Part shown: positions 25,147 to 36,567 of the stretch, in pieces
How positions within the stretch are numbered: position 1 is the first letter of the stretch
Layout of the letters: each line of letters begins with the position of its first letter
DNA from: an uncultured bacterium
GTDB lineage: Bacteria > Omnitrophota > Omnitrophia > Omnitrophales > Aquincolibacteriaceae
Reading direction: 5' to 3'
Assembly: GCA_964482725.1 (NCBI GenBank)
Contig: CAYZYT010000010.1
Coordinates: 15,794-79,793, forward strand
DNA: 64,000 nt
Notes under the pieces: generated by a model
The model's input: the letters and a program-made list of their open reading frames with translations, nothing else
Database searches by the model: none
What the model was told of the DNA's origin: nothing
Translations under genes and position numbers: made by a program

Positions 25147-28100
25147 ATGGAAAATATGAAAATGGAAAATGATTTAGACCAACTATGGGAAAGCAGTGAC
25201 GTGGAACGTGGGATGTGGGATGGGCCACAAGCCACAAGTCACAAGGCACACGGCATTTTTATGCTGAGCCGTTGTCAACCTGCCAGGTCGAATGGGCCAA
25301 TTCGACCTGGCAGGTTGACAAAGGTGACGGCACTGGTCACGGTGTTCGCATTCGTATGGTCGATGTGCATCACGCCGGTGATGGCGGAGACGGTCAATCT
25401 TGAAGGCGGTTCGGTGGATGTCAATATCCAGGACAACACGACGAACTGGAATGTGCAGGGCAATCCGGTGTGGAACGTCCCCGAATTCAATGTCCCTCAG
25501 GGAAGCACTTATAACATCGCGGGGCTTGGTCAAGGATCCAGCCTGGCGCTTCTTGTGAACGGCGGCAATGCTTCAAACATTTTTGGTACCATGAATTTAT
25601 CCAATCTTGCTTTTATCCTGCAGAATATCGCAGGGATTAATATCGGTGCTACCGGCCTGATCAATCTCGACAGAGCGTCTCTTCTCGCCTCAACGCTTCC
25701 TCTGAATCTCGATGCGACGCAATTCCTCGCGCAAGACTATCAGTTCAACGGCAAGGGGGGCTTCTTGATGAACGAAGGGAAGATCATCGGGAATCATGCG
25801 GACCTTGTGGCCTTGATCTCAAACGCTATCGAGAACCGGGGCGTGATCGATGTGCCGATGGGTACCGTGGCTCTGGCCACCGGCAGTATGGTCACCGTGG
25901 GTATCTCGGGCGATGGATTCGTGAGTATTGGGGTGGACGAATCCACGGCCAATGATATGGGGCTTTCCGATCAGATTCGGAACACAGGCACGATCTCAGC
26001 CGATGGCGGTCGTGTGATCCTGAGCGCCAAGGCCATGGACGGACTCTTTGAAAAGGCGATCAGTCTCGAGCAGGACGGGAGCGCTCTGTCGGCAGTCAAG
26101 GCCAACAACGGTTCCGTAGAGTTCGTCTCTTTCGACGATTTTTATAACAGCGGCAGCCTGAGCGCCACGAACGGCCATATCCTTGTCGATTCGAAAGGGA
26201 ATATCACCAACGAAGGGACCGTGAGCGCTCTCAGCGGAAGCGTTGAGATGACCGCGGGTCAGTCGGTCTACAACAAGAACCTGATCGAAGCTTTAGGCGG
26301 CAAGGTCGAGATCACGGCGAAAGAAGGCGGAGTGAAAAACACCGGAACGATCGACGCGACGGATGGTGTTCTGACCGTCAATGCGCGTGAAGATGTGATG
26401 AACGAGGCGCTCATGAAAGTCGTGAATGGGGAGATCAAGGCGACTTCGACCGAAGGGGCCATTATCAATGCCGGGACTCTGGATGCCGAGAAAGGGAGTA
26501 TTGAGTTAAATGCCGCGGGCACGATCGAAACTACCGGATCCTTAAAGGCTGAAACCTTCCGGGAACGGGGTGCGACATTTCGGCTGGGCGGTCATTACCA
26601 GGTTGGCGTTTCGTATCATGATAATCTGGACGGTGCGTTAAAGATGATCCCGACGCATACAGGGACGAGTCTCAGCGGTACGATCACGGATGCCGGAGAC
26701 GTTATCGTGGAAGCCGGTACGGCCGTGACGCTTACAGGCCATACCACCATTATCGCTGACGATGATGTGAACGGTTTTGGGTTTTTCGAAATGCTCTCAG
26801 GCTCGAGTATCGCGGGCGGCGGTTTTAACCTGAGTATCACGGCAGGGGACAGGACCGGCGGGACGGCCACGGAGAACCGGCTTGGCTCGATTAGCAACAT
26901 CGGGATTCTTTCCCTGAATGCTTCCGCCGGGGGAACACCGACCTATCTTTCGGATCCTACGGCTGCGATATGGACCGGCATCACGGACTTCCGGATCAGT
27001 AGCGGTAAACTCAACCGCTTTACGGGTACCGGTTCTTTGGCCACTCCCTACGTGATTTACGATGTCTATGGCCTTCAGGGGATGCAAGGATTCCGTGATT
27101 CAGGGATCTATTTTCAGCTTGATGACAGTATCGACGCATCTTCCACCCTAGGGTGGAATGGGGGGCTCGGTTTTGATCCGGTGGGAAGTAGCACCGCCTC
27201 CACCGAGAACGCTCCGACCGATCCATTCATGGGTACGCTGAATGGCCGGAATTTTATCATCACGGGACTTAAGATCAATCGTCCGTCCGAGAACTTTGTG
27301 GGGCTATTCGGGGCAACGAAGGACGCCACCATCAAGAACCTCGGGCTTGGCGGGGGTAGCGTGGTTGGGGGTGATAATGTCGGCAGTCTTGTCGGCTACA
27401 ATTTCAACACCAGTGTCGCCGATTTTTATGCCTCGACCAGTGTCAGCGGGGGGAATTATGTCGGCGGTCTGGTGGGGTTAAATTCCGGATGGTCGATTAT
27501 CACTAATTCCTATGTCTCCGGGGATGTTGCGGGTACGGGAGACCGTGCCGGAGGCTTCGCGGGGCGGAACTACCAAGCCACCATCACGAACAGCTTTGCT
27601 ACGGGCGTGGTGACGGGGGGAGGGGCCTACCGCGGCGGTTTTATCGGAGAAGACACCAGCAGCATCTATGCGAACAACTGGTGGTGGAAAGAAACAGCCG
27701 AGGGTGGGCACAATTATGGATTGTTAGACACTGGAAATAACGGCGATATTTCCGACACCAAGATCGCCGTGGAAGATACGCTAGCTGACTTTTACTCCTC
27801 CGCTCATCCGGTGTATGTTTCGAGCACCACAGAAGGTTGGGATTTTGACGTTGAATGGTTGACCAGTGCCGGGGATTTGCCGACATTTGGCATCAATCCG
27901 AACACTTATCTATGGACCGGTACGGGATCCTGGTCGGACCCCATGAACTGGAATAAGAGCGCTGTCCCAGGTGAGGGAGACGTTGCGGGTTTTAATGGCA
28001 CAAGCATCGCGAACTCGAATATCGATGACGCCTTTGGCGGGACTCTTGCCAGGATCAGGATCAAGGTTGACTATACAGGGACGATCACTCAGGACAGGTC

Positions 28101-36567: not shown

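Follow-up and report, generated by a model that had tools for sequence, protein, structure and literature searches.

A divergent TPS-type head on a giant, repeat-rich protein of an uncultured Omnitrophota bacterium

The window analysed here, a 64-kb stretch of DNA, contains on its forward strand one intact frame that stays open from an ATG at 25147 through to 36567 (11.4 kb) and encodes a protein of 3806 aa, as the original prediction had it. The Omnitrophota lineage suggested there is supported by named LigA relatives at 60-82% identity, all of which belong to Omnitrophota/Omnitrophica. The flanking genes also agree with the earlier description of a polytopic membrane protein and a recombinase: upstream lies the gene for a 653-aa, 8-TM membrane protein without a Pfam match, and the next gene downstream encodes a tyrosine recombinase. 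The gene is real, and its product is a long protein of an uncultured Omnitrophota bacterium that would take the form of a rod at the cell surface. The AT-rich region ahead of it contains three promoter-like sites where 1.4 are expected, a weak excess, and judging from these hexamers probably holds the gene's own promoter. The features of the locus are as follows.

24869..25146 (+): upstream intergenic region, 278 bp, AT-rich, with sigma-70-like hexamer matches
25147..25386 (+), aa 1-80: predicted extended signal peptide, with a variable N-extension, a hydrophobic core at aa 57-75 and the motif VMA-ET
25387..26181 (+), aa ~81-345: divergent TPS domain, from an EtpA sequence match, an AF2 model, Foldseek and phmmer relatives
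26182..26997 (+), aa 346-617: predicted beta-helical extension of the head, modelled by AF2 to aa 400; 48% identity to ortholog L004
27010..27966 (+), aa 622-940: GLUG module 1, opening LNRFTGTGS...PYVIYDVYGLQGMQG
28207..29196 (+), aa 1021-1350: GLUG module 2, five GLUG turns, ending ...YPEL
29581..34788 (+), 5.2 kb, aa 1479-3214: 25 tandem repeats of ~69 aa, from a self-built HMM and autocorrelation
34783..35571 (+), aa 3213-3475: GLUG module 3, from an AF2 model and Foldseek
35572..35901 (+), aa 3476-3585: post-GLUG region, pLDDT <50, 61% to L004 and kept in paralogs P0028 and P0035
35902..36564 (+), aa 3586-3806: low-complexity tail rich in Ser, Val, Glu and Pro

The protein begins with what appears to be an extended signal peptide. 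Residues 57-75 are the sole hydrophobic segment of the whole protein and correspond to the export segment noticed earlier; with the AXA-type site that follows, VMA-ET, at which the chain would be cleaved, they make up an N-terminal Sec signal peptide of the kind found in a TpsA. The stretch 'WSMCITPVMA-ET' is kept with minor variation in eight of nine aligned family members, the remaining one (P0001) reading 'PSWTLA-ET', and all nine share AET where cleavage is predicted. The 30-70 aa ahead of this motif vary among family members. Low Cys content is typical of type V passengers, and the mature protein has 2 Cys only in 3726 residues; beta-helix models for the head and one GLUG module complete the picture of a cysteine-poor, beta-helical passenger.

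The head that follows is, on the grounds of sequence homology and modelled fold, a TPS-type secretion domain in a divergent NIAG variant that standard domain models miss. A phmmer search of the PDB matches EtpA (8cpk, E=1.8e-5) over aa 97-358. The AF2 model of the head (pLDDT 88.6) is a beta-helix running to aa 400, and its best nine Foldseek matches in the PDB are the secretion domains of EtpA, HMW1, HxuA and FHA, with E values from 3e-9 to 2e-4. Beyond aa 400, the sequence suggests that the beta-helix may continue up to aa 617. PF05860 finds no match at E<=0.1 on the whole 3806-aa protein or at E<=10 on its N-terminal 400 aa and is silent in five paralogs too, while TIGR01901 reaches 16.9 bits, below its cutoff of 29.1. 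The original prediction had placed a TPS domain at about 25.38-26.17 kb, and of this the position (25387-26181) and the homology stand while recognition by PF05860 does not. It had also named failure against TPS HMMs as grounds for dropping the assignment, and taken literally that failure occurred. We override it because the homology to TPS domains of known structure, in sequence as well as in fold, outweighs the silence of the models. Weak hexokinase matches in the PDB search, all aligned to one 76-aa stretch, were set aside.

With the head as query and a threshold of E<=1e-3, phmmer returns 4056 relatives. PF05860 is present in every one of the distant relatives found first (P0009-P0021), the majority of which read NPNG or NPAG at the turn, and NPNG occurs in 53 of ~125 second-tier hits. 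In the window protein, NIAG ('LQNIAGINIG') stands where the NPNG turn aligns, and the pattern NP.G is found nowhere in its 3806 aa. The close family has NIAG at the turn, with NLAG in one member, whereas the distant relatives have NPNG, NPAG, or near variants. The NPNG turn of TPS domains is described as crucial to folding and secretion (PMC5422565).

Searches of Pfam and NCBIfam with the whole protein and its sub-segments leave Glug as the only model to pass its cutoff, with IcmF_C, Peptidase_M26_N, and PaaB1 falling below theirs. Glug (PF07581), with a cutoff of 20.5, matches five stretches for a score of 83.9 bits, and the pattern GG(L/F)(V/I/A)G occurs at 12 sites. Both results bear out the three GLUG modules with a shared opening that were first seen by eye; the openings, (L/F)(N/R)R(F/Y)TG, lie at aa 622, 1021, and 3213 (nt 27010, 28207, and 34783). 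Module 2 matches the N-terminal domain of an IgA1 protease by phmmer (6xjb, E=6e-4). Module 3 is modelled by AF2 with pLDDT ~90 over aa 3214-3427, and Foldseek pairs it with BACOVA_03286, a 'putative IgA1 protease' (3n6z, E=1.2e-6), and with the IgA1 proteases 6xja and 6xjb (E ~3e-3). The GLUG beta-helix is common to these structures and the Omnitrophota protein. Unlike the IgA1 protease, however, the Omnitrophota protein has neither an M26 peptidase domain nor HExxH, and its GLUG modules sit inside a TpsA passenger. A combination of TPS and Glug is also seen at one control locus (L020), there with an adjoining TpsB.

Between modules 2 and 3 lies the repeat array, with the consensus VTLTGSGKTITSGG..(F/L).(N/D)LTISG.Y.L.DAL.V.G.L.V...GTLDA....(I/M)T(L/V).G.L(D/S)LTNISN.G.VT. 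The self-built HMM finds 25 contiguous units at 50-94 bits each, and autocorrelation peaks at lags of 69, 137, and 206. The repeat region of about 5 kb reported at first keeps its extent (5.2 kb), but its unit of roughly 33 aa gives way to one of ~69 aa in 25 copies. The resemblance to PATR repeats, whose unit is ~32 aa, is not borne out, as PF12951 is silent on the whole protein at E<=0.1 and on aa 1401-2000 at E<=10 and the unit measures 69 aa; relative P0030 has just 'weak' precomputed PATR matches. The 69-aa repeat has no sequence match in Pfam, NCBIfam, or the PDB, and against 5.8 billion clusters it draws 2 weak matches only. At >=30 bits it occurs in the orthologs L003 and L004 only, and at >=25 bits six units appear in P0030. 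The array is likely to fold as a beta-helix.

The AF2 model that covers GLUG module 3 is unusable over its own last 170 residues (pLDDT <50). In the tail, 'TTDIRM(D/S)E(G/S)G' occurs three times, and these copies include a 93-bp tandem duplication (36335-36522). The motif is reminiscent of 'LTDVRVxEGAVYV', a stretch found ahead of the FecR domain at the C-terminus of paralogs, although the similarity is weak (tblastn E 0.28-2). In the paralogs the FecR domain scores above the Pfam cutoff at the extreme C-terminus, and many complete subfamily members end in one. The whole window is devoid of FecR domains, and there is no recorded match in L024, the ortholog with a complete gene call. In the literature searched, we found no description of a TPS...FecR architecture in a TpsA.

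Head and cargo differ in how freely they vary. Clustered at 50% identity, the head subfamily accounts for 24 of 1.84 billion clusters; it belongs to Omnitrophota and usually has NIAG in place of the NPNG turn. Eight paralogs occur in one MAG (CAZSFZ01), their heads 73-96% identical and their passengers 31-46%, and across the subfamily the cargo may be GLUG, RCC1, YDG, or private repeats. The head is thus more constrained than the cargo, which fits one common recognition partner.

TpsB proteins consist of two POTRA domains and a 16-strand Omp85 barrel and are usually encoded in the tpsA operon. As first reported, none is present here: a Pfam search of the large ORFs of the window, with 25 kb upstream and 27 kb downstream of the gene, finds no TpsB, POTRA_2, ShlB, or Omp85 match, and no other secretion genes are seen among these ORFs. 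Nor is there a TpsB in the sequenced flanks of ~20 related loci from several MAGs and metagenomes, where up to 10 kb was covered per side and one side only at contig ends, while the control TPS loci L022 and L020 both have an adjoining POTRA_2/ShlB gene. In all, the DNA covered for TpsB amounts to 64 kb of the source genome and ~20-kb windows of relatives. A phmmer search with the single L022 TpsB against all ORFs in 492 kb gave no Omnitrophota match, but this probe is insensitive (it scored a fragment of a known ShlB at E=0.002), and the neighbour assignments therefore rest on Pfam. The lack of an adjoining tpsB holds across the subfamily loci checked and not at the source locus alone. A review of the TPS pathway notes that the genes are not always arranged as an operon and that in some cases one TpsB secretes several TpsAs (PMC5422565).

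Several neighbours were considered as partners and rejected. The 653-aa membrane protein, a candidate glycosyltransferase for example, has no homolog at other family loci, and in the syntenic orthologs its place is taken by a flavodoxin-like gene (L024) or a 190-aa ORF (L003). A 591-aa neighbour without a Pfam match at L026 looks cytoplasmic and has a Walker-A-like 'GDTGAGKSE'; a barrel it is not. Neighbours of 473 aa (L016), 468 aa (L019), 470 aa (L015), and 447 aa (L012) have no aromatic last residue, unlike typical outer-membrane barrels, and the FadL-type outer-membrane gene beside P0039 is found at no other family locus.

The closest known relatives of the head, in both sequence and fold, are the N-terminal TPS beta-helices of EtpA from ETEC and HMW1 from H. 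influenzae. The Omnitrophota head shares with them the pattern '...FN(V/I)..G..........V.GG..S.I.G.......L.N..GI..G' near the turn, and the proteins have in common a long beta-helical passenger, a Sec signal with an N-extension, and, presumably for the Omnitrophota protein, an adhesin-type role. Unlike EtpA and HMW1, the Omnitrophota protein has NIAG for NPNG, is passed over by PF05860, has no adjoining tpsB or glycosyltransferase gene (etpC/hmw1C), carries a passenger of GLUG modules and private 69-aa repeats, and is 2-3 times longer. With FHA/FhaB of Bordetella and with CdiA it shares the TPS head fold (1rwr, E=9e-5) and the design of a very large beta-helical exoprotein. In FhaB a prodomain at the C-terminus stays behind in the periplasm, and the FecR end of the paralogs may be analogous to it. 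In contrast to FhaB and CdiA, the FHA-1/FHA-2 repeats (PF05594/PF13332), the pretoxin/VENN toxin module, and the immunity gene are absent, and whereas fhaC and cdiB adjoin their tpsA genes, no tpsB adjoins the Omnitrophota gene.

The uncultured nanobacteria of the Omnitrophota are believed to attach to other cells or to prey on them, and their large surface proteins are almost unannotated. The giant proteins of the archaeovorin type come from the same phylum and are likewise very large, poorly annotated, rich in beta-helix, and presumed to act at the surface or in attachment. They are encoded by ORFs of more than 20 kb, with many TM helices and 42 predicted in V. archaeovorus, and many have SecA-like helicase domains and T2SS/pilus neighbours (West-Roberts et al. 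2023, Seymour et al. 2023). The window protein differs in having an 11.4-kb ORF, one hydrophobic segment, no SecA/DEAD match in Pfam, housekeeping neighbours, and a TPS head. In the literature searched on Omnitrophota, we found no mention of TPS, hemagglutinin, Glug, or FecR.

The reading we favour, with somewhat better than even confidence, is that of a type Vb-style secreted adhesin or fibre, exported by Sec and served by a shared, distant transporter. The extended signal peptide would direct the unfolded chain into the periplasm, where an Omp85-family transporter, with its gene at a distant site in the genome and probably common to all paralogs of the family, would recognise the NIAG-variant head; we infer that such a distant TpsB exists. 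The nearly Cys-free chain would then be threaded out to form a very long beta-helical rod, made up of the head, the three GLUG modules, and the 25 repeats of 69 aa and roughly 70 nm in length if a 0.48-nm turn takes up ~23 residues. Such a rod would be a surface fibre or adhesin, plausibly attaching to other cells as has been proposed for large Omnitrophota surface proteins. One class of Omnitrophota surface proteins would in this way gain a recognisable export logic: a TPS head missed by Pfam, cargo that is interchangeable, and as many as 8 copies in a genome. It also raises the question of which outer-membrane protein serves a TpsA-like family never found beside tpsB, and a profile of the NIAG-type head could allow annotators to detect such proteins.

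Against the type Vb model stand the failure to find a TpsB in the window or in the sequenced flanks of ~20 loci, the change of NPNG to NIAG, and the silence of PF05860. It is possible, though we think it improbable, that the head works without a dedicated TpsB and that the protein crosses the outer membrane by another conduit, be it BamA/TamA-like, a secretin, or one so far undescribed, with FecR docking the periplasmic end of most paralogs. The contrast of these loci with the controls, the loss of NPNG throughout the subfamily, the C-terminal FecR domain in its unfamiliar architecture, and the report of T2SS/pilus genes beside Omnitrophota giant-protein loci would all suit such a route. Yet the fold and overall sequence of the head are still clearly TPS, its strong conservation is equally explained by a shared distant TpsB, and the window protein has no FecR and the window no secretion genes. 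To our knowledge, no TPS domain has been characterised that does without a TpsB. A bolder version, which we regard as doubtful, would see a private multi-copy Omnitrophota family of head, cargo, and tail, whose NIAG head has been uncoupled from TpsB in favour of another conduit with FecR docking, and in which the window protein is a FecR-less member that is releasable or differently anchored. If true, type V-like secretion would gain a new branch, and this in a phylum that is uncultured and possibly predatory.

Returning to the type Vb fibre, three further explanations compete with it. We consider it distinctly unlikely that the protein is an extracellular enzyme, either an IgA1-protease-like peptidase or a beta-helix polysaccharide lyase or hydrolase, rather than an adhesin. 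In favour of an enzyme are the matches of the GLUG modules to IgA1 proteases, the frequent use of beta-helices by pectate lyases and tailspikes (matches here weak, E>0.05), and the proposal that Omnitrophota giant proteins degrade cell walls. Those IgA1 protease matches are confined to the non-catalytic GLUG beta-helix, however, HExxH is absent, and Pfam finds no M26 catalytic or CAZy-type domain. Very little weight falls on the idea that the long ORF is an assembly artefact (a chimera or collapsed repeats), or else a gene in decay that was cut short at its 3' end beside the recombinase. Short-read assemblies do break at the gene, a Logan contig stopping ~450 bp past the upstream gene, several relatives end at contig edges, and the FecR end of the paralogs is missing here. 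However, the repeat copies are just 60-77% identical as DNA, which makes assembly collapse unlikely, and the frame is open across 11.4 kb. Colinear orthologs come from independent assemblies: in L004 the frame stays open for at least 3781 aa, with 82% identity in the head and 48-67% elsewhere in every region that its locus covers, to aa 3585, and L024 has a product of 3745 aa, called complete, at 59.7% identity over 3044 columns. Truncation by the adjoining recombinase is disfavoured because L024, the only syntenic ortholog whose gene call is complete, is equally long and likewise has no recorded FecR match. Least probable of all is a CdiA/BcpA-like polymorphic toxin for contact-dependent delivery, which the size, the TpsA-like character, and one 'VENN' tetrapeptide at aa 2022 might bring to mind. 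The tetrapeptide belongs to one of the repeats ('LDVENNVMTLGG'), Pfam detects neither PT-VENN nor FHA-repeat nor toxin domains, and the C-terminus is the low-complexity tail. The exclusion of a CdiA-type toxin in the original prediction is supported in this way and by the tyrosine recombinase that comes next in place of a small immunity gene, and the paralogs end in FecR rather than in variable toxins.

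The window protein is a Pfam-silent, NIAG-type TpsA belonging to an Omnitrophota-specific, multi-copy family that is partner-less by genomic context. It is encoded by a single intact ORF (25147-36567, + strand) of 3806 residues, as originally predicted, and the motifs quoted in that prediction lie at the positions it gave. The protein is organized as follows, in residue numbers.

1-80: extended signal peptide with a variable N-extension
81-345: TPS head
346-617: beta-helical extension
622-940, 1021-1350 and 3213-3475: three GLUG modules
1479-3214: repeat array, 25 contiguous units of ~69 aa each
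3476-3585: conserved region, modelled with pLDDT below 50
3586-3806: tail of low complexity that carries TTDIRM motifs, three in all

There is one hydrophobic segment, at aa 57-75. The sequence WSMCITPVMA/ET (slash, predicted cleavage) is kept with small variants in 8 of 9 aligned family members; all nine share AET at this site, and their N-extensions differ. The mature protein contains two cysteines. In the tail, a 93-bp tandem duplication (window 36335-36522, two copies, 84% identical) codes for a repeated 'GVEEITTDIRMDEGGV' motif.

The head is a divergent TPS domain. Its identification as TPS, made in the original prediction, is upheld by sequence and fold homology, although the curated models failed: PF05860 did not match the whole protein or, even at E<=10, its isolated N-terminus, and TIGR01901 of NCBIfam scored 16.9 bits, below its cutoff of 29.1. 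By phmmer, aa 97-358 match the EtpA secretion domain in the PDB (E=1.8e-5). For aa 67-400, AlphaFold2 with an input of 22 sequences gave a model with a mean pLDDT of 88.6, and its best nine PDB matches in Foldseek are all TPS secretion domains, from EtpA, HMW1, HxuA, and FHA (E 3e-9 to 2e-4). PF05860 is present in all of the distant relatives found by the first search, and when aa 76-330 were searched exhaustively with phmmer, 4056 proteins out of 1.84 billion cluster representatives matched at E<=1e-3. These are separated by a gap in E-value, with 24 representatives at E<=1e-30 (lowest 8e-46) and ordinary TPS proteins starting at ~1e-28. The NPNG turn of TPS domains is described in reviews as highly conserved and crucial to folding and secretion (PMC5422565). 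It is by far the commonest form outside the close group (53 of ~125), followed by NPAG and NPSG, whereas 17 of the 24 close-group members carry NIAG instead, which accounts for the failure of the curated HMMs to recognize the head.

GLUG is the sole Pfam recognition in the protein (83.9 bits, five stretches), and the three modules described originally are confirmed. One module, modelled with a pLDDT of ~90, matches both 3n6z (E=1.2e-6) and IgA1 proteases in their N-terminal domain. The repeat region had been described as ~33-aa units resembling PATR repeats, neither of which held up: autocorrelation peaks at lags of 69, 137, and 206 give a period of 69 aa, and PF12951 gives no match. The 69-aa repeat has no match in Pfam, NCBIfam, or the PDB, and among 5.8 billion clusters it has two relatives, both weak, one of which (P0023) follows the repeat with an FNRFTG-GLUG module in the arrangement of the window protein.

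The named relatives of the window's LigA (60-82% identity) all come from Candidatus Omnitrophota/Omnitrophica. Syntenic loci are present in other assemblies. Locus L024 matches the window's gene order through ligA, after which an open frame encodes a 3745-aa product sharing 59.7% identity with the window protein over 3044 columns. In the L004 ortholog the frame stays open for at least 3781 aa, and the product is 54% identical end to end, with the head the most conserved region (82%, against 48-67% elsewhere); the syntenic loci L003 and L025 run off their contigs. The interval from ligA to the giant gene is occupied by the following.

22907-24868 (+): 653-aa membrane protein, ~8 predicted TM helices, then a soluble C-terminal part of ~290 aa

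It has no Pfam match. It is found there in the window's lineage only, and we rejected it as a conserved partner. The slot holds a flavodoxin-like gene in L024 and a 190-aa ORF in L003, and looks like a variable insertion point. Elsewhere in the window, 9567-10667 (+) encodes a ParA/MinD-type ATPase (AAA_31, CbiA) fused to a glycogen-binding module (AMPK1_CBM/CBM_48), a fusion kept in L024 and L025, and 48252-49592 (+) fuses a Sua5/YciO/YrdC domain to a low-molecular-weight phosphotyrosine phosphatase domain. On the + strand lie 43 of 47 greedily selected ORFs, the four others being short and overlapping + genes, and GC skew is positive across 1-64000; the window therefore falls within one long co-oriented replichore segment.

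The original report of no TpsB in the window is borne out. Its large ORFs have housekeeping Pfam assignments or none, and no POTRA, ShlB, or Omp85 domain is found among them. At ~20 related loci, the neighbouring ORFs of 420 aa or more, as far out as 10 kb (contig permitting), were checked by Pfam scans or precomputed hits, and none was a TpsB. The same check picked up a POTRA_2/ShlB gene in both canonical controls, immediately upstream of a Nitrospirota TPS gene (L022) and downstream in a TPS+Glug gene cluster (L020). It follows that the lack of an adjacent TpsB gene characterizes the subfamily as a whole. A FadL/Toluene_X-type outer-membrane barrel gene (L027 2707-4125, - strand) lies divergently upstream of the FecR-ending P0039 (5011 aa) and was not seen at other family loci. 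At L021, a distant canonical TPS locus (P0020) with no TpsB recorded within 8 kb, three Pfam-less proteins of ~510-550 aa are encoded upstream (1709-7829); one of them, whose sequence was read through, is polytopic with a C-terminal part that looks TPR-like by eye, and the three may be periplasm-facing and glycosyltransferase-like.

The family scan sampled one genome per GTDB species and gave 17 loci, almost all of them from Omnitrophota MAGs. A single MAG, CAZSFZ01, holds eight paralogs (L003, L005, L007, L008, L010, L011, L013, and L016) with near-identical signal peptides ('QSDLRGRMGWRKATAAFTAFVFAWSMCVSPVMAETI') and heads 73-96% identical, versus 31-46% (local) for the passengers, a pattern that points to gene conversion or to strong selection acting on the export head. 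Cargo types include GLUG, RCC1 propellers, and YDG domains, 11 of the last in one NIAG-head paralog (L007 18042-21590).

The most economical reading, and in our judgment a probable one, is a beta-helical fibre or adhesin secreted in type Vb style, through a transporter that is encoded at a distance and is common to the paralogs. This reading fits a head much more conserved than its cargo, the cysteine-poor passenger, and the known non-operonic TPS arrangements and TpsBs that serve several TpsAs (PMC5422565). It is unlikely, by our estimate, that the NIAG head has instead been re-used in a different export route, perhaps with a FecR tail as periplasmic dock. A FecR domain (PF04773, 31-39 bits where the cutoff is 24) does end many complete members, with the terminus FEVxTPTALTGVRGTxFEVxVKEKA; NIAG-head examples include P0029, P0032, P0035, P0036, P0040, and L001 10945-17703. 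The domain is absent from the window protein and, by tblastn, from the entire window, and no FecR hit is recorded for the complete L024 ortholog call. The tail's TTDIRM motifs are weakly similar to LTDVRVxEGAVYV, an element upstream of FecR in paralogs. In the literature searched, this TPS-FecR architecture was not described, and no paper connected TpsA to a FecR domain or Omnitrophota to TPS.

Toxin, enzyme, and artefact readings are disfavoured, as specific tests count against each. The sole VENN falls within a repeat unit, no HExxH motif occurs in the protein, and repeat collapse in assembly is unlikely because the DNA copies are mutually just 60-77% identical.

Glycogen and sugar-nucleotide genes (GT5 glycogen synthase, GH57/DUF3536, GlgC, PGM) recur beside family members (flanks of L001/L017, L005, L008, L016, L006, L026, L012, and L009), which may be a simple outcome of orthologous positions across genomes. 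In each of three different MAGs, a member has a PAS/HAMP histidine kinase together with a sigma-54-dependent response regulator immediately upstream (L010 5947-9687, L015 5317-9648, L019 5671-9649), a pair that could possibly be a dedicated regulator of the adjoining paralog.
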